Source: a virus
IMG/VR virus record: IMGVR_UViG_3300045988_162923
DNA length: 64,000 nt
Reading direction: 5' to 3' (one strand)
Part shown: positions 9,808 to 44,960 of the stretch, one piece after another
How positions within the stretch are numbered: the stretch's first letter is position 1
How the letters are laid out: the number at the start of each line of letters is the position of its first letter
Program-made: the position numbers and the translations under genes
Notes under the pieces: model-generated
Told to the model about the DNA's origin: nothing
The model's input: only the letters and a program-made list of their open reading frames with translations
Databases searched by the model: none

Positions 9808-9808
9808 A

Positions 9809-22522: not shown

Positions 22523-23323
22523 TTATACAATATTATACATTGAACTTATTATTTCATTATAATTTAAATGAGACAAAGATGTATATGGAATACGCTTTAA
22601 AATAATATTATTCTTTTTACAATATTCATTTTTTAAATTATCTCTAAATTGAATATCTTCTAATGTGTCTTTAGTATGGCTCCAAGTATTTGTATCTGGT
22701 CCAGTATAATGTTGTTTACCATCAAATTCAATTAAATATTGTAGATTATCGTCTTTATCAAAAATAGCAAAATCAAAGCGTAATCTATAATTAGTTAATG
22801 GATTTCGTAAATCTGGAAAAGTATATTCAGTTTTATAATTTATATTATAATTATTTAATATATCTTTTATAATTTCTTCTCCTCGAGAAGAAATACACCC
22901 ACAAGAGATAATGGCTCCAGAATTTAAATCATTTCCTCGAATAGATTTAATATTTCCACAATCACACTAACAAATATACCAACTTTCATTTTTATCTCTA
23001 CTAGCCTGTTTTCTTAATCCTTCATACTTTATAACTACTAATTTACCAAATCTATCGCCAATCTAAATAGTTCTTTGATTTTCATTATACTTTTTCATTC
23101 GAGTGCTTGCTTTAATTCTATTCTAACATCCACATGATGGGTCTTTTGCTTTTGTAAAGTATGGCATTGCCATTGGTTTAATAGTCCCACAATCACATTT
23201 ACATACCCACATAGTTTGAGTTTTATTATTTACAGTACGATACAAAGCAGTTAAATGACCAAATCTCTAATTAGTTATATCTTTAGCTTGCCCTAAAGGT
23301 ATTTTTTTATATATTTTTTCCAT
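22523..23323 (-). CDS. Homing-endonuclease-like protein: two Zn-ribbon repeats + DUF559-like PD-(D/E)XK domain ([22 protein letters not shown]); TAG-recoded (4 TAG)
   Basis: MEKIYKKIPLGQAKDITN-Q-RFGHLTAL...WVCKCDCG...SCGC-Q-NRIK...YIC-Q-CDCGN. The DGKQHY here uses CAA for Q where paralogues use TAG. Inserted among standard-code early genes. Confidence 0.6.
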
Positions 23324-28538: not shown

Positions 28539-28566
28539 TACCTTTCTTTTTTCATTTTCTATAAAT

Positions 28567-28595
28567 ATTATATATTATTTTTTATTAAAAATCAA
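28567..28595 (-). promoter_or_regulatory. Consensus promoter TTGATT-17-TATAAT (minus strand); rightmost promoter of the 10.6-28.5 kb minus-strand gene block
   Basis: Reverse complement reads TTGATTTTTAATAAAAAATAATATATAAT. Confidence 0.55.
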
Positions 28596-28628
28596 ATTGG
28601 TAAATTTTTAATTAGTTATATTTTAATT

Positions 28629-28968
28629 AAATTAGGTAATTTTTCATAGTTTCTAATAAAAATATAAAATGGTCGTTTTAAATAAAAATGGTTAAAATTT
28701 TCTGATAAATGGTCAAAATTTTCTATATTTTTGTCCGAAAATTTCTATTGTTTTGGTCAAAAATTTCTATTAGTTGGTCATAAATAAGTGTTTAGAACCA
28801 AATTAGGTAATTTTTCATAGTTTCCTATTTTTATTTAAAGTGGATAAATTAGGTAAAATTTTTAGGTAATTTTTCATATGTTCCTCTTTTTATTTAAAAT
28901 TTTAGGTAATTTTTCATAGTTACTGATCGGGAAATCGAAGTGCTGATTAGGTAATTTTTCATAGTTCC
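28629..28968. repeat. Iteron array A: 5 direct copies of ~20-bp TTAGGTAATTTTTCATAGTT
   Basis: Copies at ~28631, 28803, 28862, 28902, 28948. Three more copies at 29676-29755 on the other side of the recoded wHTH gene. Confidence 0.6.
28669..28790. repeat. Iteron array B: ~5 direct copies of TGGTCAAAA(A)TTTTCTAT (degenerate)
   Basis: AATGGTCGTTTTAAAT / AATGGTTAAAATTTTCTGAT / AATGGTCAAAATTTTCTATAT / TTGTCCGAAAATTTCTATTG / TTGGTCAAAAATTTCTATTAG. Confidence 0.5.
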
Positions 28969-29028
28969 CTATTTTTATTTAGTTGGGTAAAAATCGTTAA
29001 TTTTACCTATTTAGATTTTAAATAAAGT

Positions 29029-29682
29029 ATGAAAGGAGGCAATATTAAATTGGCTGAAGATAAAAAACGCTTTCCGGCGAATACTACTATGGAAGTTCTT
29101 ACTTTTTTAAATGATAAAAAAATTAATGGTGAGTTATATGCTTATTTATAGACTTTATCTACTTATGAAGTAATAGATAAAGATAATAATTTATTTAGAA
29201 CTTTTGTGTTAAAGAAATCATTACCTTCATAGTCTTAGATATGTAAGACATTAGGTATCAAAAGCCCCAAGACTTATAAATCACATTTAAGTTATTTAAT
29301 TGAGTAGGGTTATGTTATTGAAGAAGAAGATAAATATATGTTACCTGAAATGGAGAATATATATTTTTTAATTCCATTAAAGACTTTATAGTATATAAAT
29401 GATAACTGTAAAGAGCATATTATAAAGATTTATGTATATCTTGGTTAGAGATATAAATGGGCATTGGAACGAGGAATATAGTATGAATTTACTTTAAAAG
29501 AGTTAGGGGAACATAGTGGTATTAAAGTAGAGAATAATACTCGTGGTTATGAAATTGTTAATAATGCTTTAACATTTTTATGTAATTCTGAATTAATAGA
29601 TTATGTTAGTTTTTTTGATGGTAAAAGTTAGAAGAAGCGATTAACGAAATTTTGCTTTGATTATAAAGATTTAGTTAGGTAA
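29029..29682 (+). CDS. Winged-helix DNA-binding protein (217 aa) flanked by iterons; candidate replication initiator or regulator; 8 in-frame TAG codons (recoded)
   Basis: ATG at 29029 (or TTG at 29050 after AAGGAGG). Translation ...LKELGEHSGIKVENNTRGYEIVNNALTFLCNSELIDYV... continuous only with TAG as sense. Ends TAA at 29680. Confidence 0.5.
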
Positions 29683-29755
29683 TTTTTCATACCCACTTTA
29701 GGTAATTTTTCATAGTTGCTTCGTATTAAATTAGGTAAAAAATCATAGTTTATCT
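29676..29755. repeat. Iteron array A, right-hand copies (3 copies of GGTAATTTTTCATAGTT variant)
   Basis: Copies at ~29676, 29700, 29733. Confidence 0.55.
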
Positions 29756-29861
29756 AAGTAATAAGTAATATAAGTAGGGATGGTATAGGCTTTAAATGTC
29801 CCTTCGGGCCATTTAAATCCTATACAAGACTTTTTTCGAGGGAGTTAAGGGAGGAATAATA

Positions 29862-30128
29862 ATGGTAATAGATGGTAAAGTAGTAAATGAATTAAAGCAC
29901 TGTGGATTAAAGTTATATTTATTTTTAAGTTGCTTTTATAATGAATAGGAATGGATAGTAAATCCGTAGGAATATGCTAATTGGTTAAATATAGATTATA
30001 AAGTAAAAAGTAGAACAGTTAGAAAATCTATGAATGATGCTATTATTAATTTAATTGAATGTGGATATATGAAAATAATAGATGAAGATAAATATTATTT
30101 TTCAATAGATAAATTAAAGGAGAAATAA
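29862..30128 (+). CDS. Small wHTH-like protein (88 aa), 2 in-frame TAG (recoded)
   Basis: RBS GGAGGAATAATAATG. MVIDGKVVNELKHCGLKLYLFLSCFYNE-Q-EWIVNP-Q-EYANWL... Confidence 0.45.
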
Positions 30129-31012: not shown

Positions 31013-31041
31013 ATTATATAATAAATTTTTTCTTTTGTCAA
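31013..31041 (-). promoter_or_regulatory. Consensus promoter TTGACA-17-TATAAT (minus strand) firing toward the 30906 terminator (~100-nt transcript, no ORF)
   Basis: Reverse complement reads TTGACAAAAGAAAAAATTTATTATATAAT. Confidence 0.45.
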
Positions 31042-31432
31042 GATTTTGTTAAGAATTTTTTATAAGTGTTAATTGTGCGGGAGGGCATTCGGCAATTCCT
31101 TCTCTATTGGATCATAAGCTTGAAATAGTTTATTTGATTGCTATTGGATTAGTGGGAGAGAGATAAAAATATAGGAATTATATAGGAAGAAAGATTATAG
31201 AGGTAATAAGAATTATAATGAATTGTAGATAGCTATAGAAAATTGTGGGGAAACTGTGGAAGTGTCGTGCCGATCGGTCCTATACAATTATCTCAACAAT
31301 CCATCCTCATCGTCACCGTAATAAAAATAAAAAAAAGAGTGAAACTCAACGTTTCACTCTTTAATATCTCGATTTCTATTCAGATTTCCAATTCTTAGGA
31401 TGAAAATTGTCCCACCCGAAGAAGTGTCCGTT

Positions 31433-31810
31433 TTAATCTACGAATACCTTCAAAAAGTCCGAAATTGCCTTATCCGAAGTCTTAGCAGTCGTGCGCGCAG
31501 AAGCACCCTTGTCATCATACTTCTCCATGACCTCAATCAAAGGCATAACGGCCTCAATAGTATCAAGGAACTGATCGGTCAGGCTGGTCATTTCATCGGT
31601 AGTACAAGTGTCATCTACATCAAAATACTCCAATAGCAGATTCACGAGATCAGTTGCCTTTTCATTGATAGCCGTGCGCAGGTTAGTCTTATCATCCTGT
31701 TCCTTGGTCTCCTGGACTGCCTCATTCAGAGTCTTAGCCATTTCATCTGCGATAGACTGAGCGTCCTCACCCTTAGCAAGACGAGCAATAATATCTTCCT
31801 TAGTAAACAT
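31433..31810 (-). CDS. Acidic hypothetical protein (125 aa)
   Basis: ORF from the track. Promoter 31862-31890 upstream, hairpin terminator ~31330-31362 downstream. Confidence 0.5.
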   Translation of the reverse strand: MFTKEDIIARLAKGEDAQSIADEMAKTLNEAVQETKEQDDKTNLRTAINEKATDLVNLLLEYFDVDDTCTTDEMTSLTDQFLDTIEAVMPLIEVMEKYDDKGASARTTAKTSDKAISDFLKVFVD

Positions 31811-31861
31811 ATATGTTACCTCTTTATCTAATAGTAAAGTGATCTCTCACTTTCTAAATAT

Positions 31862-31890
31862 ATTATATCATTTTTTTTTATAAATGTCAA
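31862..31890 (-). promoter_or_regulatory. Perfect consensus promoter TTGACA-17-TATAAT (minus strand)
   Basis: Reverse complement reads TTGACATTTATAAAAAAAAATGATATAAT. Confidence 0.6.
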
Positions 31891-32201
31891 ATGGGCGGAT
31901 TGTCTAAATGGGCCGCGCTTTAAAAATGCTTTTTTTTAATATTATAACAAATTTTTTTAATATTGTCAAATGCCGGGCATATGATATAGTACCGATCGGC
32001 GCCCTGCGGGGGGCATCACTTTCGGGAGAACCAGGTCGCATATGGAGGCCACTGGATTGAGCAAAAATTTTCCATATGGGATAAAGGATCGGGAATTCGG
32101 TCCAACACCTCCGGCGTCGGCCCGCTAAACTATCCCTTATAAATATTGTACCACCCCAGGTCGCATTTGTCAATAGGCAAAATGAACAAAAAAAAGAGGG
32201 G

Positions 32202-32363
32202 TTATTCCCCCTCTTTTTCTCGCCGCTCTTTTTCCATTTCCGCAAGACGTCTGCGACGCTCCTTTTCTTCTTCCTCGCGTCTCCGGGCATTTCGTCGCAT
32301 GGTATTCATAGCAGTCGTACAAGCGACTTGAGTAGCAATCATAGCGCCTACATTGATAATCAT
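32202..32363 (-). CDS. Small Arg/Glu-rich peptide (53 aa)
   Basis: RBS GGAGGTAAAAAAATG. MIINVGAMIATQVACTTAMNTMRRNARRREEEEKERRRRLAEMEKERREKEGE. Confidence 0.35.
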   Translation of the reverse strand: MIINVGAMIATQVACTTAMNTMRRNARRREEEEKERRRRLAEMEKERREKEGE

Positions 32364-32375
32364 TTTTTTACCTCC

Positions 32376-32657
32376 TTAACAATCATAGGTGAAACAACCG
32401 GCGTAAGGGTCAAAGCCCTCATCGCTGTCAATGTCATCTGGTTCATCATCTTCATCAAGTTCATCAGGTTCATAAGCCAGAAAGAAAATTTTTGCGCCTT
32501 CATGTTGAGCTGCGAGGTCACGAGCTTCCCCGTAACTCGCACACGGCACACCCGCAAAAGTTCCGTCTCCCTTAACAACTGCCCACCGCACATCAGTCCA
32601 GTCAAAATTTTTCATGTTATCAGTTCCTTTTCTCTTGGATTGTCTATAGTATAGCAC
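32376..32657 (-). CDS. Hypothetical protein (~85 aa from internal Met), acidic C-terminus
   Basis: ORF from the track. The first ~8 codons of the track ORF are probably 5'UTR (promoter 32648-32676). Confidence 0.45.
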   Translation of the reverse strand: MLYYRQSKRKGTDNMKNFDWTDVRWAVVKGDGTFAGVPCASYGEARDLAAQHEGAKIFFLAYEPDELDEDDEPDDIDSDEGFDPYAGCFTYDC

Positions 32658-32676
32658 AAAAAGGGGCTTTTGTCAA
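32648..32676 (-). promoter_or_regulatory. Consensus promoter TTGACA-17-TATACT (minus strand), GC-rich-module type
   Basis: Reverse complement reads TTGACAAAAGCCCCTTTTTGTGCTATACT. Confidence 0.5.
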
Positions 32677-32686
32677 GCCCCTTTTT

Positions 32687-33274
32687 TCAAAATGGCAAAT
32701 CTTCTTCGTTGGAAAGTGTGGAATTGTAGTCGCTGGTAATTTCAGGAATGTCGATGAAATTTCTGGAAGCAATGTAATCCGCAAGATGGACAAGCCTGTC
32801 AATATTTGTAAAAGGTCTGTCCTCGCGGTCGGTACTCCATTGCCCCATGTGGGATTTAATGGCTTGCGTGAGCAGAAACGGAGCAGGTTCGTCAAAGTAT
32901 TCGCACCAGGCAGAATCTACCAATTTTGCGGCATTTGCGGCATGGTTGGGATATTCTTCCTTGTCAAAATCTTCTAAACCGTATTTTGCGGTATCGTGAC
33001 AGATACAAGCGACACGCGCAAGGTCTTTATATTCGTCTTTCATGTAAGCCCACTGAGACATTCTCAAAAGTTCTTCACAGAACGCGCAAACGGCTTTAGT
33101 GTGCCGAACTAGACCACCTTCGCCCTGAGAAAAAACAGGATGAAATTTTCCAGAACTTGAAGCGCCGATTTTCCAGAAATAGGACGGAACTTTTTCGTCA
33201 AGATAGAACTTAACGAACATTCGCAAATCTTCACTTTCGATCTGGTCGATTTCCTTGGAAAAATATTCAAACAT
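32687..33274 (-). CDS. HD-domain phosphohydrolase (CICHDTAKYG ... HLADYIASR)
   Basis: 195-aa ORF. H...HD...H...D metal-binding pattern of the HD superfamily. Confidence 0.6.
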   Translation of the reverse strand: MFEYFSKEIDQIESEDLRMFVKFYLDEKVPSYFWKIGASSSGKFHPVFSQGEGGLVRHTKAVCAFCEELLRMSQWAYMKDEYKDLARVACICHDTAKYGLEDFDKEEYPNHAANAAKLVDSAWCEYFDEPAPFLLTQAIKSHMGQWSTDREDRPFTNIDRLVHLADYIASRNFIDIPEITSDYNSTLSNEEDLPF

Positions 33275-33328
33275 ACGCTTTACCTTTCTGCGGTTGGTTG
33301 GGTTGTCCGCTCCCTTAACTGTATAGAC

Positions 33329-33357
33329 ATTATACCATACAAAAAAGCCGTTGTCAA
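33329..33357 (-). promoter_or_regulatory. Consensus promoter TTGACA-17-TATAAT (minus strand)
   Basis: Reverse complement reads TTGACAACGGCTTTTTTGTATGGTATAAT. Confidence 0.5.
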
Positions 33358-33412
33358 GCCTAACTTTTCCGCAGTTTTTGCCTAGGAAAAGGGCGATTTC
33401 TCGCCCTTTTTC

Positions 33413-33817
33413 TTAACTTTTTGGCTTTCTTTTCTGCGTGAGCGTCAATTCGTAGCAATTTTCACCAACTTTGAACGCAATCATGCGCTCTTTGTTCGTA
33501 ATTTCCACGTTTTCGCACGCATTTTCGCTGTTTTCAGCCAAAAAAGTTGCTAATTCCGCGATAATTCCGGCTTTAGTCGGATTTTCTTTGCGCTTGCGCT
33601 GGTCAAATTTGTAATTTGTCGGCACTTTGCGCGTTCCCGCGTTCATATATTTTTTAGCTTCTTTTTCCTGTTCTGGTGGCAAGTCAAACTCAACACGTTC
33701 ACCCTTGTCGATAGCGCGGTCGGCTTCCCACACGCTTTCCGCTTCTTCCTGCGTCCAGCCCATGAGCTTCATATTTTTGTCAATCCACGCCTGTTTGTCT
33801 TTTTCCTTTAATGCCAT
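33413..33817 (-). CDS. Hypothetical protein (134 aa); paralogue of 38668..39024
   Basis: Shared block FDLPPEQEKEAKKYMNAGTRKV / FELPPELEAGAKKARQTGTRKV. Confidence 0.5.
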   Translation of the reverse strand: MALKEKDKQAWIDKNMKLMGWTQEEAESVWEADRAIDKGERVEFDLPPEQEKEAKKYMNAGTRKVPTNYKFDQRKRKENPTKAGIIAELATFLAENSENACENVEITNKERMIAFKVGENCYELTLTQKRKPKS

Positions 33818-33869
33818 TTAATTCCACCTTTCTTCTGGATGGGGCGGATTGCTCCGCCCCGATTGGCAA

Positions 33870-34310
33870 TTACTGGTGAATACGGAAATAAGCTTTCCGC
33901 TTTTCCTCAACGCGGTCGAGCGTGCCATCCTTTACCATCTGCCGGACGATAGCAGAAACACGCTGGTTCGTCAGGTCTACGATTTCCGGAACGGACTTAA
34001 TCAGTTCCGTGATAGTGAACAGACGGGTCGGCTCTGCGGACATCACCGCCGCAATCGAGGTCTTGAAACCGTCGTTCGCCACCTGCGTGGCAGTCGGCTT
34101 CTTGTCAGCCGCGTTCTTCTTGGAAAGCAGTTCCAGCTCATGGTCGATGAAACCGATAACTGCGTCATAGTTGTCCGCGGTCTGCGGATACGCTTCACGG
34201 AGAATGTTGAAGTAGTCGCGCTTGGTCAGCTTGGAAGTAGTCTTAGTCATAGTATCAATTCCTTTCTGGTTTTTTAGTGTGTCCTTCACTTGATGAATAT
34301 ATTGTATCAC
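33870..34310 (-). CDS. Putative DNA-binding protein (~125 aa from internal Met MTKTTSKL); paralogue of 39068..39469
   Basis: Shared KKPTATQ.ANDGFK......LFTITELIKSVPEI.DLTNQRVSAIV.QMVK.G.L. Confidence 0.5.
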   Translation of the reverse strand: MIQYIHQVKDTLKNQKGIDTMTKTTSKLTKRDYFNILREAYPQTADNYDAVIGFIDHELELLSKKNAADKKPTATQVANDGFKTSIAAVMSAEPTRLFTITELIKSVPEIVDLTNQRVSAIVRQMVKDGTLDRVEEKRKAYFRIHQ

Positions 34311-35253
34311 AAACCTTGCGATTTGTCAATACCTAACTTGAATTTTTTTTGCCATCCTATCAGCCGCTACCTTCCAGCAAATGGTAGCTGTTGGTTCACA
34401 TTTATATCCCGCAACAATAGGACTCCGTGCGGAAGATTCTAACGAGAAAGTCTTACATCGCTCTCATGGGCTACGGTCATATTCACCGTTGCTTTCTCTC
34501 TCTTTTGTACCCTCATTGTATCACATCTGAGGGGCTTTGTCAAGAGGAAATTTTCAATTCCCAAAAATTTTTTTCGCCCCTTGGGAACTCTCCATTCCCT
34601 CTTGACATTATGTAGTATAACAGATACGCCTTAAAAAGTCTATTGGCAAAATGACGAAAATGGGATAAAATAAAAAGATTATTTTGTATAACTTTTCTCT
34701 TGACAAATTGCTGGCGGGGTGGTATAATGGAAATTCGGCGCCTCACATACGTGGGCGCCGCGCCCAAAAATTCCCAAGTAAAAAGGCGAAAAAAGTTGAG
34801 GAAATTTATTCCTCAACTTCGCACGCGGTTTCCAGAAGTCGGCAGAGCATGATAATATCATAAAAGTCAATACCTTCCAGTTCTTCTTGCCAGCAGAAGC
34901 AACCGCAGTATTCACCATTGACATTTACTGGATAGCAGCACCAGTTATTTTCAATTTTACGGACTTCGTTCATCTCAGGTGGAAAATAATGTTTCTTTGG
35001 TTCAGTGTTCCAATAGCTGATTGGCATACCGTCTGCCCCATACAGGGCAAACGGTTGACAATAATCTTCACACCACTTTCTCACAACTTTTATGAAAAAT
35101 TCCATTTTTAACCCTCCACCAGATTTTCCCTGATAAATTCATCATCTTCATAGAAGAATTCGCCCCATGAAAATTTACAAATCCAAAGGGCTTCATAATG
35201 GTCCCACTGGACAGCTTGGGCGATGTAACCGCCCTTTCTGAACTTTTTCCCTT

Positions 35254-35529
35254 TCATGCGTTAAAATCCTTCTTTCCATCAAGAATTGCTTCAATTTCAG
35301 AAGTGGTTAGGCGGTCAACCTTTTCTTCAATCTCGTGAAGAATTACTCCATCATCTCCACAAATTTCATCGGTGATGTTCAGCCATCCATTGTAGATGTG
35401 AAGCAGGACAAAATCACCAGATTCAACTGTTGCGCCACAACAACCGCAAATGATTTCGTCTCTGTCCTGATTCCAAATGCCGCTACAGACATTGCCCTCG
35501 TTGTCCATGAAAATAACCTGTTTATTCAT
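35254..35529 (-). CDS. Small Cys-containing protein (~91 aa; true start at second Met, MNKQVIF...)
   Basis: The track ORF starts MIYQKKGIDTM. The first 10 codons are the conserved 5'UTR (AAAGAAAGGAATTGATACA-ATG) shared with 37292..37573. Confidence 0.45.
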   Translation of the reverse strand: MNKQVIFMDNEGNVCSGIWNQDRDEIICGCCGATVESGDFVLLHIYNGWLNITDEICGDDGVILHEIEEKVDRLTTSEIEAILDGKKDFNA

Positions 35530-35583
35530 TGTATCAATTCCTTTCTTTTGATAAATCAATTATACCATACCACAGAGGCTTTG

Positions 35584-35988
35584 TCAAGCCTCTGTGGAAA
35601 ATTTATTTTTAATTTCATTTAGTTTTTCATGTTCTTCAATCCAGTATTTCCATGTTCCGTACCCATCTTCACAGAAATAATACAATCCGGGCGAATTAAA
35701 TACACCATTGATAATTTTAACAGGCTTTTCATAGCCCATTTCTTCAAAGAAATCATCAATAAATTGCGCGTCCGCATAGCTGTTAACGCGGATTGCCCAA
35801 ATACAATCAGGATCAGTATTGGAATTAAATGCCAGTAAATTTCCTGCCCGATTATAGATTTTCAAGCGGTTATCATCATCCGCCATTAAATCATTATAGC
35901 GGCAACCCCACTCATGACGGCGGCAGTCATCATAATCGTCAAATTCCTGTCCGCAATAATCGCACTTATAAATATTCAATTCTGTCAT
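35584..35988 (-). CDS. Hypothetical protein (134 aa) with N-terminal CxxC..C..C zinc ribbon
   Basis: ORF from the track. CDYCGQEFDDYDDCRRHEWGC. Confidence 0.45.
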   Translation of the reverse strand: MTELNIYKCDYCGQEFDDYDDCRRHEWGCRYNDLMADDDNRLKIYNRAGNLLAFNSNTDPDCIWAIRVNSYADAQFIDDFFEEMGYEKPVKIINGVFNSPGLYYFCEDGYGTWKYWIEEHEKLNEIKNKFSTEA

Positions 35989-36826
35989 GGTATCAATTCC
36001 TTTCTTTATTGTATAATTATTATAACATATTTTTATTTATTTGTCAAGCCGGTCGGGAATTTCTTTTTTATAATTTTCCCTAACCGGCTTACGCTTATTT
36101 CTCCCAAATGTCTTGTGCCAACCAGAAGAAACCAGTTCTTAAACGGGACTGAATCTCAAAAAGGTTATCACTCAGCTCTTGGATGTCCTCGCGGTCATCT
36201 TCAGCCGCGTCCTTTTTAGTAGCCGCAACATCTTCAGATAACTGAAGAATTTCTTCGGCAATTTTATTAAGTCTTTCAGCAATACTATTTGTCATTGTTC
36301 ATTCTCCTTACTTGTTCTCTCTTGGAACAATTATAGTATAACAAGTATCGGGAAAAATGTCAACTGTCATTTTACACAAATTTTGCCCGAAAAAATTGTG
36401 TAATGTGTTTAAAATCTAAAAATCCTCGCGCTTGGGCCGTGGGCGCGAGGCTGAAAGATTAACAGATTTTTAAAAAATCCAGAGAGCATAACCCTCTGGA
36501 TTTTATTTTTAGCCGTCAACATAAATAATAAGGGTATTGTCTTTGGTTTTCAAACCAGTAACAGGCAATCCCAATACCCATTCTTCGCTTGCGTCCAGAA
36601 GGTCTCCATTCAAGGTCATGCGGCCTTTGCGGTTTTTGAGATAGCGACCACAGGTATTTTCATTTATCACTTCAACGCCATTTCCATCATAAAACATCAG
36701 CGCTCCTTTTACAGTGCCGATTACATTTTTAATCATGCTCAAAGTCATTTTTATCAATTCCTTTCTTTTGATAAATAAATTATAGCACAAGAGGTTGATT
36801 TTGTCAAGCCCCTTGTGCTATTTTTT

Positions 36827-37279
36827 TTAACGTTCAGATGCGATACTAAGATATCGAACAATCATGTCCATTTCGCAACCCATGTCCTGCTGGTCGCAAA
36901 CCGCATAACCCACAAGGTCGCCGTCCGCACAAATCGGATAAACGCCATAAGTGTTATTGAAAACAAACGGCTTTCTTTTAAAATCCCACTGGGTCGAAAC
37001 ATAAGGCGGAAAGTTTTCCATACCACGCAGTTTTACGGTAGTGTCATAGATTGCGATGGGACGCAGACCAGAATTTGATGCCATTGTAATGGCAACCCGC
37101 AGAGCTTCTTCGGTCAAAGAACCAAGTACTGAATACCTCTTAAAGCAAACACAGTTATCATCTTCAATAAAGATTTCAAGAGGGTCTCCCTCGCGAATCT
37201 TCAAACTACGGCGGATTTCTTTCGGAATAACAACACGTCCAAGGTCATCAATTCTGCGAATAATGCCAGTTGCTTTCAT
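36827..37279 (-). CDS. AbrB/SpoVT-family transition-state-regulator-like protein (N-terminal swapped-hairpin DNA-binding domain GIIRRIDDLGRVVIPKEIRRSLKIREGDPLEIF)
   Basis: Textbook AbrB/SpoVT N-domain motif. 150 aa with extra C-terminal domain. Confidence 0.6.
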   Translation of the reverse strand: MKATGIIRRIDDLGRVVIPKEIRRSLKIREGDPLEIFIEDDNCVCFKRYSVLGSLTEEALRVAITMASNSGLRPIAIYDTTVKLRGMENFPPYVSTQWDFKRKPFVFNNTYGVYPICADGDLVGYAVCDQQDMGCEMDMIVRYLSIASER

Positions 37280-37291
37280 TGTACTTCCTCC

Positions 37292-37573
37292 TTAAAGATA
37301 AATAGTGCCTTGATCGCAAGCAGGCGGATTCAGTCTATCTACTGTAATATCAGTTTCTGCGTTCTGACCATCTTTATCTTCATACTCGACATGGAATGTC
37401 AAGTCTCCAACATTATCCAGATAGTCCTGAATAGCCTTGACGATTGTGTTCAGATATTTTCTTTCTTTGGCTTCATCTCTGTCTTGCTGTTCTCTGTAAG
37501 CAAGACCAATCAATGTGGCGATTTCTCCATCAGTCAAGCCTTTCAACATTTCTTCCATATTATTATCTAACAT
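37292..37573 (-). CDS. Small acidic protein (~93 aa; start at second Met)
   Basis: Same conserved 5'UTR + RBS as 35254..35529. Promoter 37603-37631. Confidence 0.4.
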   Translation of the reverse strand: MLDNNMEEMLKGLTDGEIATLIGLAYREQQDRDEAKERKYLNTIVKAIQDYLDNVGDLTFHVEYEDKDGQNAETDITVDRLNPPACDQGTIYL

Positions 37574-37602
37574 TGTATCAATTCCTTTCTTTTGATAAAT
37601 CA

Positions 37603-37631
37603 ATTATATCATATAAGGGCTTGTTTGTCAA
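37603..37631 (-). promoter_or_regulatory. Consensus promoter TTGACA-17-TATAAT (minus strand)
   Basis: Reverse complement reads TTGACAAACAAGCCCTTATATGATATAAT. Confidence 0.5.
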
Positions 37632-37885
37632 GCCTTTAAATTAAATTTTCTTCATAAAGCATTTCGCCTTTACTCCATCGTTGAAAATGTACATTCATAA
37701 GCTCCAGGTGTCTTTCATAATAATCGGCATCAGCAGGGTTCTCAAAATCATGCTCTATAACTACACCTGTCTTATCGTTAATCATACGAATAACTTCACC
37801 CTGATAAATTGGCTTATCCATAATTAGCACTCCTTTCTTTTGATAGCCCTATTATATCACAATAGGGCTATCTTGTCAACTCTTA

Positions 37886-38323
37886 TTATTTGATAGATAC
37901 GCAGTTAATACCGCGATCTTTAATCCATTCAATGAAATCTTCACCGCTGAGATTTTTTGCCAAATCTTCCATAGTAGGATGAACTTCACTAAATTTGTAA
38001 GTAATTGTAACCGGCTTGTAATTTTTCCAACTAAAAGTATAAATCTCAAAGCCAATTGCAGCGCGGACGCGAGGTTTTTTAAGGAAAAGCGTTTGTTGTA
38101 CTTCCAGACAAGGGATGGTATATTCATCCAGCAAATCCAAAAGGTCACCAAATGATTTACAGTAAAATTCGCGATCTTGCGGCTTCTCATCTCTAACAAG
38201 CAGATTATAGCCCCGCCATGTTAAAAGTTTGCTTTCTTCTTTGCCCCAATCCATAAAAATATTCATATCATAAATCTTTTTCATTGTGTTAATCCTCCAT
38301 CCAATCTTTAATTCTTTCAGCAC
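37886..38323 (-). CDS. Hypothetical protein (145 aa)
   Basis: ORF from the track. Confidence 0.45.
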   Translation of the reverse strand: MLKELKIGWRINTMKKIYDMNIFMDWGKEESKLLTWRGYNLLVRDEKPQDREFYCKSFGDLLDLLDEYTIPCLEVQQTLFLKKPRVRAAIGFEIYTFSWKNYKPVTITYKFSEVHPTMEDLAKNLSGEDFIEWIKDRGINCVSIK

Positions 38324-38667
38324 AATCTATACAATCAATGTCTCTTTCATCACACTGAGAATACAGTGGACAACAAGCGCAATCATTAAATGTCTCAACC
38401 CAACTTTCCAAGCACTCAGTTAGACGCTCGGTATTTACTTCAATGTTCATTAGGTGTTTCCTCCCTTAACCTTGTACCAACATTATAAAGCTTTTTGGGA
38501 GAAAAGTCAACCGTCAAAATACACAAAAAATGTGCGGAAAATTTGTTGAATGTTACTCTTGACAAAAATGACGCGCCCACTGGATTGTGGTCGCGCGGCC
38601 GAATTTCCATCTATTTCCAAATAATTTGGGTAAAAAAATTCCTCCCATTTTTTGGGAGGAACTTTTG

Positions 38668-39024
38668 TCATTTTCTGGGGCAAGCCAACGTCAGCCGGTA
38701 CTTTTTACCATTGTAAGTAAATTCCATTTCTCGCTCTGGATTTGTAATGGTAATGTTATCCAAATCCAAATCGGGGTAGGCGTCTTCCAAAGAGCTTTCC
38801 AAATACTGGATGAGTTCGCGCTTGTCCTCGTCGGGTTTGCGCTCTCGTTTAACCTCTGTGACCTTGCGCGTTCCAGTTTGTCTTGCCTTTTTCGCTCCTG
38901 CTTCAAGCTCCGGCGGCAATTCAAACAACTTTTCACCGCGGTCAATGCGTTTGTCGTCCTCTTGGACTTGTCGCGCTTCATCGACTGAAATATTCAACCG
39001 CTTGGCGAGTTCTTCGACTGTCAT
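38668..39024 (-). CDS. Hypothetical protein (118 aa); paralogue of 33413..33817
   Basis: See 33413..33817. Confidence 0.5.
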   Translation of the reverse strand: MTVEELAKRLNISVDEARQVQEDDKRIDRGEKLFELPPELEAGAKKARQTGTRKVTEVKRERKPDEDKRELIQYLESSLEDAYPDLDLDNITITNPEREMEFTYNGKKYRLTLACPRK

Positions 39025-39067
39025 TTTTTACCTCCTTTCGGAAGTGGGGGCAAAAGCCCCCATCCGG

Positions 39068-39469
39068 TCACGCCACCTTGAAGAAAGCCTTTCTCTTGTC
39101 GTCAACACGGACAAGGCTTCCAGCCTTTACCATCTGACCGACAATCGCGCTGACGCGCTGGTTGGTCAGGTCGGCAATCTCCGGCACGGACTTAATCAGC
39201 TCAGTGATAGTGAAAAGCTGGTCAGGGGTCATGCCCATGTGGGCAAGAATCGCGGACTTGAAGCCATCATTGGCGAGCTGGGTCGCAGTCGGCTTCTTTT
39301 CGGCGCTGTTCTTCTTCGCCAGCAGTTCGAGTTCGTGGTTAATGAAATCCACGATAGTCTGGTTGGACTGGACTTCGTTCATCTGGAGCAGAGCGGTGAA
39401 GCAATCCTTCTTAGTCATCTTAGTAGCCATAATATCAATTCCTTTCTGGTTTTTCAGTGTGTCCTTCAC
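39068..39469 (-). CDS. Putative DNA-binding protein (~120 aa from internal Met); paralogue of 33870..34310
   Basis: See 33870..34310. Duplicated two-gene cassette. Confidence 0.5.
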   Translation of the reverse strand: MKDTLKNQKGIDIMATKMTKKDCFTALLQMNEVQSNQTIVDFINHELELLAKKNSAEKKPTATQLANDGFKSAILAHMGMTPDQLFTITELIKSVPEIADLTNQRVSAIVGQMVKAGSLVRVDDKRKAFFKVA

Positions 39470-39613
39470 TTGATGAATTTATTGTATCACAAATCTTTCG
39501 ACTTGTCAATACCTTTTTAAGATTTTTTTTCGTATCCTTGGGGAGAAGTTCATCTCCCCTTGGAACATTTACATTGTATCACACTTTGCGGCGATTGTCA
39601 AGCGTTAATTTTC

Positions 39614-40120
39614 TCAGCCGACAATTTTTTTCAGAGCCGCGATTTCCTTGGAAAGCTGTTCCAGCTTTTCCTGCTTCTTACAGAGGGCAATTTTCCACTC
39701 AGTCACGCGGTTACTCAGATACTTTTCATAGGCTTCCGGGTTGAACTGGTAATAATACCGCTTACAGGTAATTGTTTCCACGTCGCGGTATTCGATGTGG
39801 ATACCGCCTGCCGCCTTGGTAATCATTTCCTGAACAGACTGCGGCAGAGCCTTGAAATCGTTCAGCTTCATGATACTTTCATTGTTGGCGTTCAGAACGT
39901 ATTCCGCGCCATAGCAAGAATCAACTTCTTTTTCAAAAGTTTCAGTCTTGACGATGGTTACAATGTGATGATTTTCAAGAGTGCTGAGAAGTGCCATACC
40001 CTTGGGGCGGTTAGTGTTGTATTCCTTGGAGGTAAAGGGGTTAGTGCCAAAGAGTTCCTTAACGCGGCAAACAGCTTCGGCGAGGTTAGCGGCATCGGTA
40101 AAGTTAATTCTAGTCATGGT
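39614..40120 (-). CDS. Hypothetical protein (~168 aa from MTRINFTD...)
   Basis: Track ORF 39614..40288. The upstream part is probably UTR (conserved KKGIDTM leader). Confidence 0.4.
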   Translation of the reverse strand, partial: TMTRINFTDAANLAEAVCRVKELFGTNPFTSKEYNTNRPKGMALLSTLENHHIVTIVKTETFEKEVDSCYGAEYVLNANNESIMKLNDFKALPQSVQEMITKAAGGIHIEYRDVETITCKRYYYQFNPEAYEKYLSNRVTEWKIALCKKQEKLEQLSKEIAALKKIVG

Positions 40121-40184
40121 ATCAATTCCTTTCTTAATTTCTGTATTGATTATATCACATTCGGTCGGGTTTGTCAAGTGGTTT

Positions 40185-40844
40185 TTACCACTTGGGGAAC
40201 ATTTTATTTTCGTGGCAATTCCACTGGTGGCAGTTTTTGGTAAAGCGCTTATGGAGCGAATAGCACTTAACAAAAATTGCCATTTCATTCAGTGCGTCAG
40301 AAAGCGCGGTGTGTTCTTCTTCAAAGTCGGGGTTTCTGGTGATGTAGGCATAGACCGCTTCAACACCTGTTGCGCAAGACCTACCGCCATTCTTAGAACG
40401 CATACCATGTTCATGGCAGAATTTGTCAAAGCCTTTCTGGTGCGTGATGGTCTGTAAAGCCATCAAATAAAGGTCGATAAACTCAAATTCGTCCAGAAGC
40501 GCGGCAAAAGGTGTCTTAATGAAATCAAAACAGCTATTGTATGCCATAACATACTTTACACCATAGAACCGGCAGAGGTTGCGTACAATGGACACGGCTT
40601 CGGCTTCGGTAGTTACCGCAGAAATTGTGCCATTTATCAGACGGGCTTCATAGACCGGAAAATGCTTCTTGGCATAATCGTCTTTGTTGATGTTGTCATA
40701 ATGTTCCATGATGAGGATGGAAGTTGTTGCCAAAATGTTACCATCCTTGTCGTGAATGACAGCACCCGCGTTATACATTCCGGTCGGGTTAGAACTGCCA
40801 CCGACTGTCTCAGTGTCCAACGTACAGTAGATATTTTTGTTCAT
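40185..40844 (-). CDS. DnaQ-like 3'-5' exonuclease (DEDDh: CTLDTETVG / AYNSCFDF / HTALSDALNEMAI)
   Basis: 219 aa. Exo I-III motifs recognisable. Confidence 0.6.
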   Translation of the reverse strand: MNKNIYCTLDTETVGGSSNPTGMYNAGAVIHDKDGNILATTSILIMEHYDNINKDDYAKKHFPVYEARLINGTISAVTTEAEAVSIVRNLCRFYGVKYVMAYNSCFDFIKTPFAALLDEFEFIDLYLMALQTITHQKGFDKFCHEHGMRSKNGGRSCATGVEAVYAYITRNPDFEEEHTALSDALNEMAIFVKCYSLHKRFTKNCHQWNCHENKMFPKW

Positions 40845-41333
40845 TTTTGGTAATTCCTTTCTTTTGGATGGGGCTTACCATCGTTTCCCCTATCCTTAAT
40901 TTCTGTATTGATTATAGCACATCAGGAGCTGTTTGTCAAGAGGAAATTTTATTTTTTTTTACACACGAACCGCGGAAGTTGTGTAGCCCAGCTAATGATA
41001 CCAAGCACTTTTAATCGCTATTCCCTCTTGACATTATAAAGTATATCACATGATGGGCGATTTGTCAAGAGGTTTTATATATTTTTTCAAGAAATCTTAT
41101 CTCAAAATGAGCGTATAACGTTTCTTTCCTCTTGACATTATAGAGTATATCACATTTCAGGATTTTTGTCTATTGGCAAAATACACAAAAATCCGCTCAA
41201 AAAATTAGTGAACATTCCCTCTTGACAAAATGGCGCGGCCACACAATCGTGACCGCGCGGCTGTCATTTTACAACTATTTCCAAAAAATGAATCAAAAAA
41301 AATTGGGAATCCAGATTTTGGATTCCCATTTTT

Positions 41334-41624
41334 TCAATCAATAGGAAGCGAATTGTAAGAAACGGGAGAAACAGTAATACCAACATTTGACTTCAACAAG
41401 AACTTGGCATCTTCTCCGATGTAATCAAAACTGTAAACAGCCCATTCCGTTTCAATATCTTCATCATCCAGCATCAGATTTTGCCAAGCTGGGTTAACAG
41501 CGGCAACCTTGTCAAAAATTGTCTGGACTGCTTCTTTTGCTTTTTCAAATGTGTCAAATGCACAATCCAAGTCTGTAAAATCAGCTTCTTCAAAATGAAC
41601 TACCCAAATAATCTTTGTTTCCAT
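41334..41624 (-). CDS. Small acidic protein (96 aa)
   Basis: ORF from the track. Confidence 0.4.
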   Translation of the reverse strand: METKIIWVVHFEEADFTDLDCAFDTFEKAKEAVQTIFDKVAAVNPAWQNLMLDDEDIETEWAVYSFDYIGEDAKFLLKSNVGITVSPVSYNSLPID

Positions 41625-41639
41625 TTTTTGTCAATCCTT

Positions 41640-41891
41640 TCAGAGTTCAGTAATATAATTATCTTCCATTGTCCAGACGGCACACAGATTATCGAATGAA
41701 AAATCTTTATCCATTTTTTTAAGTTTATTTCCGATATCTGTCAAAAAATTTTCGATATTTTCATCAAAATATATGTCTTCTTCTTCTGATGTTCCATCGA
41801 CATGATTACCATAATCTTCCATTGGCTTCCATTTATCATCAACTTCTACTTCAACTGGAACACATTTCGTGACATAAGCGATAAATTTCAT
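41640..41891 (-). CDS. Small acidic protein (83 aa)
   Basis: ORF from the track. Confidence 0.4.
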   Translation of the reverse strand: MKFIAYVTKCVPVEVEVDDKWKPMEDYGNHVDGTSEEEDIYFDENIENFLTDIGNKLKKMDKDFSFDNLCAVWTMEDNYITEL

Positions 41892-41906
41892 TTTTTACTA
41901 ATCCTT

Positions 41907-42161
41907 TCACATTTCAAAAATTGAATTTCCATTTACTGTATCTACGCACAATCCATCATAGGGAAATTCTGCCCGAATTTCTTCAAGAAACTCTGAAGCA
42001 AATTTATTGTAATAGTCAACTGCTTCATCTGGAGCATCATAAAATTCTGGATATTTTTCACAATCGCTTACCAGTTTATCCCATTTTCTATCAACTTCAA
42101 TTTCTTTTTCAATTCTTGCCGGATAAGACACAATAACTTTCATACCATCACCCCAAGGCAA
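41907..42161 (-). CDS. Small acidic protein (84 aa)
   Basis: ORF from the track. Confidence 0.4.
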   Translation of the reverse strand: MPWGDGMKVIVSYPARIEKEIEVDRKWDKLVSDCEKYPEFYDAPDEAVDYYNKFASEFLEEIRAEFPYDGLCVDTVNGNSIFEM

Positions 42162-42433
42162 TCAAAATTTTAATATCGGTCGCTTCTTCCATCAAGATTT
42201 CAAGCTGTTCGTCATTCATCTGTTATCCCTTCCTTTTTTCCCCAAGTGATAATTTTTGTGTAAGACTTTAATCCGAACATAAGTTTTTTCATGTCCAGAA
42301 TAAACAGGTCAGCGTCTCGTTCTGTGCGGAACTCTAATGTATTGCTATAATACAATCCCCTTTTATCAAAACCTGAATATTTGACAATAATATTTTTAGG
42401 AACCATTTTCTTATTTCCTTTCTTTGGAAGCGC

Positions 42434-42910
42434 TTAGCGCGCTTCCAGAATATTCCGCAGGATTTCAATGATATTTTCTTTTGTGGGGTCGATTGCTTCA
42501 CCAAGCGTCCAAGCGTTCCGCACTCGCGCATCATCATCGAAAATCAGTGCTGTTCCATCTTCTGGAAGTTCCCGCTTGACTACCTGATGTTTCGGTGTTC
42601 CATACTTGACTCCGTGGAAATGGTCAAAGGGAAAATCATGATTGCTCAGCCATTCTTTTTTTGCTTCTCTCACCGCTTTATCATAGTCGGGAGTGGAAAC
42701 CTTGCTCAGCCAAGTTACAACGGAAATTTCAATCCCGATAACGCGACACTGAGAAAGCAGGTTGGCAAGTTCTGCCATGTCGGTTAGAGGTTCTGCGATT
42801 TTATACGGGGTCGGGTCGGATGTTCTCAGCATTTCCAGCCAGTTCTCAACGCCATACAGGTCAGCGATAGTTCCATCCATGTCGAACACGATTTCTTTAA
42901 TCATTTTTTT
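42434..42910 (-). CDS. HAD-superfamily hydrolase / 5'(3')-deoxyribonucleotidase-like (FDMDGTIADL motif I); start probably at internal MIKEIVFDMDG
   Basis: Track ORF 42434..43180. Motif I DxDGT plus C-terminal FDDD motif typical of HAD phosphatases. Confidence 0.5.
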   Translation of the reverse strand, partial: KKMIKEIVFDMDGTIADLYGVENWLEMLRTSDPTPYKIAEPLTDMAELANLLSQCRVIGIEISVVTWLSKVSTPDYDKAVREAKKEWLSNHDFPFDHFHGVKYGTPKHQVVKRELPEDGTALIFDDDARVRNAWTLGEAIDPTKENIIEILRNILEAR

Positions 42911-43091
42911 TTCATTCCTTTTCGTTTTTGTATCTTGATTATAACACGCTTTTGCTTGTTTGTCAAGAGCCAGTTTTGAATTTCTGCGATATTTCCGCAC
43001 GAATTTTTTTCTCAGTTTGTTGTCAGGTTTTACACAGCGGGGACAATTTAAGTCCCACGCTGTAAAATCCTTACAAGTCCCTTTTTTCAGA

Positions 43092-43406
43092 TCATCCATG
43101 GAAAAAGCCCCGGATAATCTTTTCAAATGCGGGTTTGTAGTTTTCGGTCCAACGGCGCTCAAGTTCGGAGTTAGTGCCATTCACATAAGCGTCCCACTCG
43201 ATAGCGCCAAGGGCGTTGTGCTCGAACAGTTCGGCATCAGTAGGCATAGTCTCAGCAAAAATCAACTGCTGTTTGATATAAGCGTCAATAGTGAAGTTCT
43301 TCATTGTAATTACCTCGTTCCTTAACTTTGTACCCTTATTATACACCCTATTATTCTCTTTGTCTATTGGCAGAATACACAAATTCGGGATCAAATATTT
43401 TTTCAT
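43092..43406 (-). CDS. Hypothetical protein (104 aa)
   Basis: ORF from the track. Confidence 0.4.
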   Translation of the reverse strand: MKKYLIPNLCILPIDKENNRVYNKGTKLRNEVITMKNFTIDAYIKQQLIFAETMPTDAELFEHNALGAIEWDAYVNGTNSELERRWTENYKPAFEKIIRGFFHG

Positions 43407-43579
43407 TTTTGTTCAATTTTTCGCTTGACAAAATGGTTAGCCGGTGTTATAATGGAAATACCGGGGCTGGCAAACGTCGGCGGGCGGCCGCAAATCCTTT
43501 ATCCTTTAATTATAGCATACTCAGTTGAAAATGTCAATAGGCAAATTAAATAAAAATTAAAGCCCATTTGGGCTTTAAT

Positions 43580-43837
43580 TTACAAAATGTGGATTTCTGC
43601 GTCATAGGGATAAATGATCTGGTCACCTCGAACAAACTCCCAGTCCATTGTTTCAACATCTATGGCTGTTACATAAGTTCCATCTTCATCCATTAGCGGC
43701 ATAAGCTCATTAGCAATTTTCAAATAAATGCGTTCCGCATTATTAGACGGAGCAAAACAAGTGCCAATTGCTACATTCTTAAAGACAATAGGAGATTTCT
43801 TATTACATACAACTTTCATGTTATCAGCTTCTTTCAA
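43580..43837 (-). CDS. Small protein (85 aa); paralogue of 43834..44064
   Basis: Shared ..G.CF......D.LY.K.. Confidence 0.4.
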   Translation of the reverse strand: MKEADNMKVVCNKKSPIVFKNVAIGTCFAPSNNAERIYLKIANELMPLMDEDGTYVTAIDVETMDWEFVRGDQIIYPYDAEIHIL

Positions 43838-44064
43838 TACTCGGCGTGAATTTCTGCCCTTACTGGAAAAACATGGTGTTCATCATCAATCGCAGTATAA
43901 CCCATCACTTCAAGATTAACTGCGTTGATTGGTCCAATACTCTGTTCATAGAAAGATGGCATTTTCATGTAAAGAACATCAGAATTTCCAGTGGAATAGA
44001 AGCAATCACCAACCCTCAACTTGCTAAATTCAACTGCTCTAGTACCATCGCGAATAATTTTCAT
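43834..44064 (-). CDS. Small protein (76 aa); paralogue of 43580..43837
   Basis: ORF from the track. Confidence 0.4.
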   Translation of the reverse strand: MKIIRDGTRAVEFSKLRVGDCFYSTGNSDVLYMKMPSFYEQSIGPINAVNLEVMGYTAIDDEHHVFPVRAEIHAEY

Positions 44065-44645: not shown

Positions 44646-44960
44646 TTATTTCATAATCGCAGAAAATTCTTCTGTATGACCGCATTTATCGCAAGTGTAA
44701 TAATAATCTTTTGAGCCACGATAATTAGTAGCGCTAGAGAACTGATACTGACCACCGCATTCACAGTAACCATTATTCCAGCGGTCATGATTTCCTTCCG
44801 CGTCTTTATACAAAAGAGTCGCAACGCCAAAAGCGATAGCAAGCGCAACTAGAATGGCAATGATTTTGCCACGGCAAGTTTCAGGGGCAAGAAAAGCAAT
44901 CATCAGAGGGAAAATAGCCATAACTGCCCATACGATGTAAAAGCTCGGATTTGTAAACAT
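44646..44960 (-). CDS. Membrane protein with C-terminal zinc ribbon (104 aa)
   Basis: ORF from the track. Confidence 0.4.
   Translation of the reverse strand: MFTNPSFYIVWAVMAIFPLMIAFLAPETCRGKIIAILVALAIAFGVATLLYKDAEGNHDRWNNGYCECGGQYQFSSATNYRGSKDYYYTCDKCGHTEEFSAIMK

Follow-up and report, generated by a model that had tools for sequence, protein, structure and literature searches.

The direct repeats and the gene between them

The DNA analyzed here is a 64,000-nucleotide stretch of the virus record IMGVR_UViG_3300045988_162923 in IMG/VR, referred to as the window, and the element in question is a locus near 29 kb in which direct repeats lie on both sides of a gene for a tandem winged-helix protein. 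The locus is a short plus-strand island between two minus-strand blocks. The window contains seven matches to the 20-mer TTAGGTAATTTTTCATAGTT at three or fewer mismatches, all on the plus strand and all within 28632–29717; the chance expectation is 0.05 matches, and none of 100 shuffles reached seven (0/100). An eighth copy of this type is the degenerate TTAGGTAAAAAATCATAGTT at 29731–29750. With five copies upstream of the gene and three downstream, an earlier note on this DNA that had counted eight direct copies on both sides of the gene was correct; a lone half-site at 28850–28861 and an inverted pair of half-sites at 28976–28997 were absent from that note. The gene and the sites (R1–R8) are as follows.

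28632–28651, plus strand: R1, full site TTAGGTAATTTTTCATAGTT
28803–28822, plus strand: R2, full site, then CCTATTTTTATTTA
28850–28861, plus strand: lone half-site TAGGTAAAATTT, abutting R3 and kept in 7/7 aligned loci
28862–28881, plus strand: R3, full site, CATATG variant
28902–28921, plus strand: R4, full site
28947–28966, plus strand: R5, full site
29050–29682, plus strand: gene for the tandem winged-helix protein, with an alternative start ATG at 29029 and eight in-frame TAG codons
29675–29694, plus strand: R6, with the stop codon of the gene inside its GGTAA
29698–29717, plus strand: R7, 23 bp past R6
29731–29750, plus strand: R8, degenerate copy GGTAAAAAATCATAGTT, 33 bp past R7

One extra loose match to the site occurs in the window, at 60547, and an exact 18-mer scan of IMG/VR returned a single cluster in each of three contigs of 181–201 kb. 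The repeat cluster is a unique cis-acting locus and not a dispersed promoter or operator. We do not read the repeat unit as a TTAGGT-17-TATTTT promoter, given that the −10-like part is missing in three of the eight units and the motif is unique to the locus. The promoters of the single-subunit RNA polymerases of SP6 and K11 have the form TTAGGT...CTATAG. The likeness of the repeat to these promoters was also dismissed, as the spacing is off by 3 nt and the confinement to a single locus is unlike a general promoter.

The open reading frame (ORF) at 29029–29682 is open only with TAG as a sense codon, and the 217-codon gene described in the earlier note is borne out in this respect. All eight Gln codons of the gene are TAG (CAA 0, CAG 0), and those for Q41, Q68, and Q140 sit on invariant or nearly invariant Gln columns among 38 homologues. 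Translation of TAG as Gln (code 15) agrees both with the need for a sense TAG in the full-length product and with the in-frame TAG codons at conserved Gln positions. The N termini of the homologues, together with a conserved −10-like box and Shine–Dalgarno block, suggest that the true start is TTG at 29050. In recoded relatives, the ratio TAG/(TAG + CAA + CAG) is 7/8, 9/11, 11/14, 8/8, 10/11, 8/8, 9/10, and 8/9; the TAG share of Gln codons is 79–100% in most of their homologous genes (homologue set L001–L038), and standard-code relatives write Gln as CAA. The fraction is 0–0.5 (0–50%) in most large structural and packaging genes of the window, and a 194-residue gene at 63157–63741 is likewise saturated with TAG (4/4). 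The earlier note found it odd that a putative initiator should be written in the late code. This paradox was overstated because the left minus-strand block also has TAG-containing genes; the gene is no exception for being recoded, and what stands is its striking and conserved TAG saturation.

Since every Gln codon is TAG, synthesis of the protein strictly depends on the decoding of TAG. The ~21 tRNA genes of the window, where the Rfam scan returned tRNAs only, include none with a CUA anticodon, and the TAG-decoding factor must therefore be encoded elsewhere. The tRNA genes lie on the minus strand at 539–8343 and include a tRNA-Glu(UUC) with a 66-nt intron (539–679) and an odd tRNA at 7093–7164 with an ambiguous call of a 4-base 'gtag' anticodon.

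The winged-helix protein and its putative sites

The AlphaFold2 model based on 38 homologues has a predicted local distance difference test score (pLDDT) of 82.3 and a predicted template modeling score (pTM) of 0.72, and contains tandem winged helices at residues 34–104 (WH1) and 117–208 (WH2). The prediction supports a DNA-binding winged-helix protein with two tandem winged helix-turn-helix (wHTH) domains, in line with the wHTH protein of the earlier note, which had named structure prediction as a check. The N-terminal segment KRFPA...TFLNDKK is highly conserved but disordered in the model. Residues 13–38 of the 217-residue protein (29065–29142; KRFPA..TFLNDKKINGELYA) are the most conserved stretch of the clade, with a pLDDT of 38–60, and are missing from the small-phage and plasmid subfamily; they may serve as an interaction peptide or as a minor-groove arm across the A/T tract of the site.

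Relatives with 44–99% identical proteins keep the cassette, including its sites, strand, and spacing. The loci with 57–99% identical proteins retain the motif GGTAA-W4-NN-ATAGTT and its strand; the spacings kept are 59 or 69 bp (R2–R3), 40–41 bp (R3–R4), 43–46 bp (R4–R5), 23–24 bp (R6–R7), and 33 bp (R7–R8). Fine conservation of the locus elements was judged on an alignment of seven loci, in which a block after R8 (TATCTAAGTAATAAGTAAT) and a long hairpin are among the conserved elements. In relatives with 44–54% identity, the repeats are still found on both sides of the gene, and their 3' half differs (ATCTAC/ATCTAA, GTGCTAGTAT, or GGGTAATTTTATCTACC). The repeats were present with the gene in every relative examined, where the earlier note had allowed for their absence from related phages.

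The site has a constant 5' half, GGTAA, and a 3' half that varies together with the recognition helix of WH2. The WH1 helix SPKTxxxH goes with the half-site GGTAA and STRTIxNQ with GGAAA. The WH2 helix NN(S/T)RGYE is paired with (C/A)ATAGTT in 8/8 loci and NH..(Q/G)Y with GGATAGTT in 3/3 loci, and other WH2 helices accompany other 3' halves (ATCTAC or GTGCTAGTAT). Because half-site and recognition helix change together, the sequence comparison supports the view that the repeats behave as cognate sites of the protein. This covariation is supportive and not a statistical proof because the sequences are related to one another. It fits one monomer reading a bipartite site, the two invariant blocks of which are 11 bp apart.

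The family is widespread. Homologues of the protein form 240 clusters at E ≤ 0.01, and the profile search retrieved 608 representative clusters at 50% identity, on contigs of up to 190–201 kb from gut metagenomes. Searches of INPHARED phages with the locus or the protein (blastn and tblastn) gave no match; GTDB genomes yielded a single 3.8-kb contig of a metagenome-assembled genome (MAG) and PLSDB one distant match. NCBIfam has no match and no model for the family, and nothing relevant was found in the literature on the family names. In Pfam, the window protein matched HTH_36 just under the threshold (WH1) and DUF6945 (WH2), and across 84 members HTH_36 was found in 31, DUF6945 in 14, and Rep3_N, below threshold, in six. 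The Rep3_N matches were at E ≤ 0.01 (best 1.3e-4; member P0246 reached 21.4 bits versus the cutoff of 22.4). The window protein had no Rep3_N match at E ≤ 1 and no Rep3_C match in Pfam, and Rep3_C was not among the 25 most frequently matched families across the 84 members. Alignment of the family alignment with that of 38 bona fide Rep_3 proteins using hhalign gave a probability of 93% and an E value of 3e-7 over 57 columns, placing family residues 130–187 (WH2) on Rep_3 residues 37–92 (WH1); the close-family profile against a single Rep_3 sequence was not significant. Remote homology of the family WH2 to the WH1 of Rep_3 is supported by the profile alignment, and by Pfam criteria the protein is not a Rep_3 member.

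Foldseek found no match below E 1e-3 in the PDB, the tandem winged-helix matches being ScpB and Stn1, and the sequence profile against the PDB retrieved generic wHTH regulators only. The structural neighbors in BFVD were uncharacterized gut-phage proteins plus several labeled replication initiator or replisome organizer. PHROG matches to replication initiators were weak, with O-like families at E 0.05–0.17. As to ScpB, the window protein had no SMC_ScpB match in Pfam, its Foldseek match to ScpAB was at E 0.015 with a template modeling score of 0.23, and no kleisin or SMC partner family was annotated among the neighboring genes; phrog_3396, labeled 'ScpB', matches the member in the small phage L041 and not the window protein.

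A candidate replication origin and competing readings

Around the sites and the gene, the locus contains the following further elements.

28545–28630, no strand assigned: A+T tract (90–95%), the least stable duplex of the locus, holding the leftward promoter
28567–28595, minus strand: leftward sigma-A-type promoter TTGATT-17-TATAAT, the first promoter of the left minus-strand block, 37 bp from R1
28668–28790, plus strand: second array TGGTCAAAAWTTTCTAT, period 21–22 bp, about 4.5–6 units, phased A/T tracts
28926–28938, plus strand: ATCGG-N4/5-TCGA element, G+C-containing, between R4 and R5, recognizable in 5/7 aligned loci
28976–28997, no strand assigned: inverted repeat GGTAAAAAT-CGTT-AATTTTACC of the GGTAA-W4 half-site only
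29023–29039, plus strand: putative −10 TAAAGT, then Shine–Dalgarno GGAGG; a conserved block with TATAGT or TATAAT in relatives
29751–29775, plus strand: A+T-rich short repeats TATCTAAGTAATAAGTAAT with the 7-nt unit TAAGTAA, conserved and abutting R8
29783–29836, plus strand: 18-pair hairpin, then a T-run; terminator-like or palindromic, −23.4 kcal/mol, z = −1.8
29862–30128, plus strand: gene for an accessory 88-residue single winged-helix protein; two TAG codons, which are 2/2 of its Gln codons

The A+T tract is a candidate unwinding region, as its nearest-neighbor free energy over 40 bp reaches −35.2, past the 99th percentile of the window. The leftward promoter within it is found at the same place in L004, L006, and L007. 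The inverted pair of half-sites is kept in 7/7 aligned loci (its right arm is imperfect in three). It directly precedes the −10-like box and ribosome-binding site, where the −35 of a putative promoter for the gene would be, and we regard it as a putative autoregulatory operator. This promoter was not called by the consensus promoter scan, and the sigma-70 scan of the locus revealed no enrichment (27 versus 22.3). The second array is real yet weaker than the main repeat. Tandem Repeats Finder reported it at 28689–28785 (period 22, 4.5 copies, 74% matches). The earlier note had listed this repeat as five copies just upstream; the array exists, but only three copies are within three mismatches of the consensus given there, and it is lineage specific, being present in the closest relatives only, absent from L004 (82% protein identity), and replaced at its position by a different array in L006. 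The hairpin after the R8 block is conserved in position, and its sequence is swapped between lineages: 29783–29825 is near-identical to 10718–10760 of L006 (57% protein identity) and very unlike 10745–10795 of L004 (82%). The hairpin module thus seems, from these sequences, to be exchanged independently of the winged-helix gene. The 88-residue neighbor is found here and in L010/L021 and is absent from L001–L003, the main protein of which is 99% identical. It shares an LIExGY..EDKY motif with the main protein and has a weak match to phrog_3396; this variable accessory protein may compete for one half-site.

We propose that the locus is a self-contained iteron cassette, that is, a replication origin together with its initiator, and assign this reading a probability of about one half. 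The layout, in which direct repeats flank the gene and an inverted half-site precedes it, matches that of iteron replicons by analogy. The 210-residue protein with two winged helices would bind each 17–20-bp direct repeat as a monomer; WH1 would read the invariant GGTAA and WH2 the lineage-specific (C/A)ATAGTT one helical turn off, across the A/T tract. At their fixed spacing, the five sites ahead of the gene and the three behind it would assemble a nucleoprotein complex beside A+T-rich DNA, namely the tract at 28545–28630 and the TAAGTAA repeats with the palindrome past R8. Two protomers on the inverted GGTAA half-sites (28976–28997) may repress the promoter of the gene itself, and the protein, made only once TAG is decoded, may time or license the event. 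The candidate iteron origin of the earlier note is partly supported, by the iteron layout, the conserved sites, and the remote similarity to Rep_3 WH1, and its replication function is what we infer from these.

Several observations weigh against an origin. The upstream sites are 40–69 bp apart versus the 22 bp typical of plasmid iterons, and the A+T tract is not unique, with ~30 comparable tracts in the window. The protein is below the threshold of every replication-initiator family. DnaA-box-like sites are not enriched in the window (26 versus 21.9 expected); of a local group of four, most fall within genes downstream, and the box located in the array is not retained in L001. For L001, L004, L006, and L007, the annotation of genes within 10 kb revealed no family of polymerases, helicases, or primases, and reading of the 20 largest window ORFs, without a family-library scan, recognized none of these either. 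The flanking blocks are transcribed in the same direction, unlike the divergent pattern often seen at origins. The cumulative GC skew reaches its minimum for the window at about 50 kb and only inflects locally at 28 kb, so that the skew check of the earlier note, read literally, points away from the locus. Every sign switch of the skew coincides with a switch of the coding strand, and the skew therefore carries no independent information on the origin. The divergent region at 50.5 kb lacks any iteron-like array.

The genomic setting bears on a second reading. The right block (31.4–50.5 kb) has a G+C content of 0.38–0.45 (about 0.30–0.35 elsewhere in the window) and many small genes, is TAG-free in the ORFs called up to 49 kb, and terminates at a strong terminator at ~31362–31325. 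Perfect TTGACA-N16-18-TATAAT promoters number 29 in the window versus 0.09 expected, and 24 of these are in 31.0–47.3 kb (21 on the minus strand). The TTGATT-17-TATAAT sites number 15 versus 0.32 expected, and 13 are on the minus strand to the left of 28.6 kb (1581–28595). The TTGATT promoters of the left block (1–28.5 kb) share a near-identical A/T spacer (TTTATAAAAAAT..TGATATAAT), the rightmost one being 28595–28567. The cassette sits exactly at the change of promoter class. The earlier note had placed the locus where the minus-strand early block ends; it is flanked by minus-strand blocks on both sides and is not at the end of a single block.

In this setting, the protein could be an autoregulated transcription factor or boundary element that occupies both arrays, loops out the gene between them, and either represses or insulates transcription at the junction of the early right (TTGACA) and left (TTGATT) blocks, with no role in replication. 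We consider this main rival plausible but on balance doubtful. The position at the change of promoter class, the 37 bp between R1 and the −35 of the leftward promoter (28595–28567), and the inverted half-site just upstream of the gene, which fits autoregulation, speak for it, as do the resemblance of WH1 to the MarR, ArsR, LexA, and Crp regulators and the TAG saturation, which suits a factor made later in infection. The motif is, however, absent from the other 14 TTGATT promoters and all TTGACA promoters, so that at most one promoter in 15 would be controlled; because the leftward promoter is just one of 15 in its class, its control alone is a weak reason for so complex a cassette. Eight bipartite sites of the same orientation at fixed spacing exceed the needs of autoregulation, no gene follows the downstream sites in L006, L042, and L043, and the nearest matches of WH2 are Rep_3 WH1 and DUF6945, not regulator families.

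The distant members of the family bear on the origin reading as well as on its rivals. In 18–25-kb siphophages, a 7-kb plasmid, and a standard-code phage, two to three direct repeats at 23-bp spacing stand right after the stop codon (three in the small siphophages of 18–25 kb), followed by short A+T-rich repeats in three of the four distant loci; the latter are analogous AATAGT repeats in L039, L040, and L042. The plasmid pRGI00117 (L039, HG796263.1; 7.2 kb, rat gut) has two iteron-type modules, at 1186–2099 and 5963–6692. It carries a canonical Rep_3 gene (Rep3_N plus Rep3_C, the latter scoring 63.7 bits) preceded by three 22-bp iterons, and also a family member of 24.5% identity, directly after which come three GGAAATTTCAACCAAC repeats spaced by 23 bp and then CTAATAGTAT short repeats. 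As the plasmid has its own canonical Rep_3 with iterons, the family member is not needed as the initiator there. This coexistence, which also favors a regulator, weakens the claim of a sole initiator, and the family member might still form a second replicon. The L040 gene has integrase and small-regulator genes on one side and terS on the other, and occupies the place between lysogeny and packaging modules; its L041 counterpart comes immediately after a DnaD-like gene for replication initiation (phrog_4707, 7e-20). Both positions speak for the origin reading. Since L041 encodes this separate DnaD-like protein beside the family member, these are distinct components. The family member of L041 gives a match to the PHROG labeled ScpB, and this label of the small-phage relatives counts against an initiator. 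In the standard-code phage L042/L043, which has gyrB, RNase H, PhoH, and RNA ligase genes, the family gene is again a lone plus-strand gene within a minus-strand block, with the sites after its stop codon; the gyrase B and RNase H genes are about 5–8 kb away, and a half-site in L042 lies on the −35 of the promoter of the family gene.

No feature of the family is more widely conserved than the two to three sites that follow the stop codon directly, which raises the possibility of an activator of the promoter just past its own gene, the three downstream sites serving the next plus-strand genes or a short hairpin RNA. The late activators Alt, RinA, and ArpU are located upstream of terS. By this analogy, the position of the gene one to four genes upstream of terS in L040 and L041 would fit, as would the plus-strand gene that begins ~110 bp past the last site in the window, L001, L004, and L007. 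We judge this activator improbable. No conserved −10/−35 follows R8, a hairpin with a T-run stands between the sites and the next gene, L006, L042, and L043 have no downstream plus-strand gene, and the downstream genes are not conserved between relatives. The five upstream sites would be left unexplained, and no late-activator family was matched in Pfam or NCBIfam.

Partition systems offer another precedent, since direct-repeat arrays flank a promoter or gene at parC and tubC. The locus resembles these, TubR and AspA are among the weak sequence-profile matches, and one homologue is plasmid-borne, so a centromere with a ParR-, ParG-, or TubR-like binding protein for plasmid-prophage maintenance is conceivable. 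It is very improbable: the window protein had no ParBc match and matched TubR only as a generic wHTH at E 0.004–1, no ParA, ParM, or TubZ family was annotated within 8–10 kb in eight contexts (L001, L004, L006, L007, L040, L041, L042, and L043), and bacterial genomes and plasmids contain almost no members of the family (one MAG contig and one plasmid). The ParB-like centromere offered as an alternative in the earlier note thus finds no support here. A packaging site (pac or cos-like) with a small-terminase-like recognition protein appears least credible of all. Repeats flank or lie within the recognition-protein gene at P1 pac and lambda cosB, a layout like the one here, and the TAG-containing code is common to the gene and the packaging genes. 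However, the TerL-like gene is 23 kb off (53026–54759) with other candidate partners directly upstream of it, terS is a separate gene in the small phages L040 and L041, and the tandem-wHTH monomer fold is unlike oligomeric TerS. Small-terminase families did not match the window protein, and contig ends are not consistently at the locus.

Returning to the origin reading, the TAG dependence of the protein would time origin firing if the protein is the initiator. An extension of this idea is that the genetic-code switch licenses the origin: a translational lock on the initiator, the one protein presumed to assemble on this unique iteron locus, would make origin firing, or a change of replication mode, await the TAG-decoding machinery. 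This extension is speculative, and we think it unlikely to hold.

Other features of the window were noted on either side of the locus. The promoters at 31013–47220 mostly have a TG-extended −10 and number about one per small gene, and this block looks like an immediate-early, host-takeover-type region. On the minus strand at 31041–30903, a perfect TTGACA-17-TATAAT promoter is followed ~100 nt on by a strong hairpin and T-run (30930–30903) with no ORF between. This element, a candidate small RNA, is conserved at 90–96% in the closest relatives only (L001–L003 and L010/L021) and has no Rfam match. Near the start of the right minus-strand block, three tandem 27–28-nt repeats (AAAACATTTTTCGATTCTAAATCACGAA) are found at 48466–48548. 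In the left block, paralogous Cys-rich genes with repeated W.C.CDCG motifs lie on the minus strand at 8476–10546 and 22523–23323; they contain eight, four, and four in-frame TAG codons inside an otherwise mostly TAG-free block, and a 42-nt repeat family is common to their regions (8827–10453 and 22940–23212).

Significance and comparison with known replicons

The cassette is a concrete candidate for an origin and its initiator in large TAG-recoded gut phages. In the large TAG- or TGA-recoded Jade and Sapphire clades, GC-skew analysis left the origins unassigned (10.1101/2021.08.26.457843), and the phage of the window may belong to these clades. If licensing by the code switch holds, a clade of recoded ~200-kb phages with uninformative GC skew would also gain its first origin defined by sequence. 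Direct repeats of its own always accompany the unnamed tandem winged-helix family defined here, in genomes ranging from 7-kb plasmids through ~20-kb phages up to phages of 200 kb, and the covariation of half-site and recognition helix offers a readable DNA-recognition code. The full replacement of CAA and CAG by TAG in the gene makes it a sharp case for asking what recoding controls.

In our estimate, it is an even call whether the cassette, which is outside Rep_3, functions in the manner of mini-F or P1 and oriλ; this reading rests on the following analogies. In the mini-F, P1, and pPS10 replicons, iteron sets are organized around the initiator gene, and the Rep_3 replicons (RepE, RepA, and Pi) have an inverted repeat of part of the iteron at the promoter of the initiator gene itself. 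This site layout recurs here, with direct repeats adjoining the gene plus an inverted partial iteron at what would be its own promoter. As in mini-F (RepE/ori2 incB+incC), P1 (RepA/oriR incC+incA), pPS10 (RepA), and R6K (Pi), the protein consists of two winged-helix domains only, and 17–22-bp direct repeats of one orientation form sets before and after the gene. The differences are that the domain order appears swapped, with the Rep3_N-like domain being C-terminal, that the upstream sites are spaced by 40–69 bp and not ~22 bp, and that the host is a ~195-kb recoded phage and not a plasmid.

The replisome organizers of the RepA_N/DnaD-like type in Firmicutes plasmids and phages are different, as DnaD_N and Phage_rep_org_N were each matched by 1/84 members. 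The ScpB or kite proteins are also tandem winged-helix proteins; they differ in that no SMC_ScpB match was found here and in that this family is always accompanied by cognate repeats, and ScpB is not known to bind specific DNA repeats. At oriλ, a palindrome follows the A+T-rich tract. The iterons of oriλ, bound by the phage initiator O, adjoin this tract, which is required for unwinding (PMC7466680). A similar order is observed here, with R6–R8, then the A+T-rich TAAGTAA repeats, and then the palindrome, and in both cases the sites are within the transcription unit of the initiator or its candidate. In lambda, however, the iterons are inverted repeats inside the O gene bound by O dimers, whereas here they are direct repeats outside the coding region, and the protein has no Phage_rep_O match in Pfam. 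Lambda O also has an adjacently encoded partner, P, whereas no partner gene is conserved beside the cassette, and no helicase-loader-like family was annotated among the adjoining genes in L001, L004, L006, and L007.

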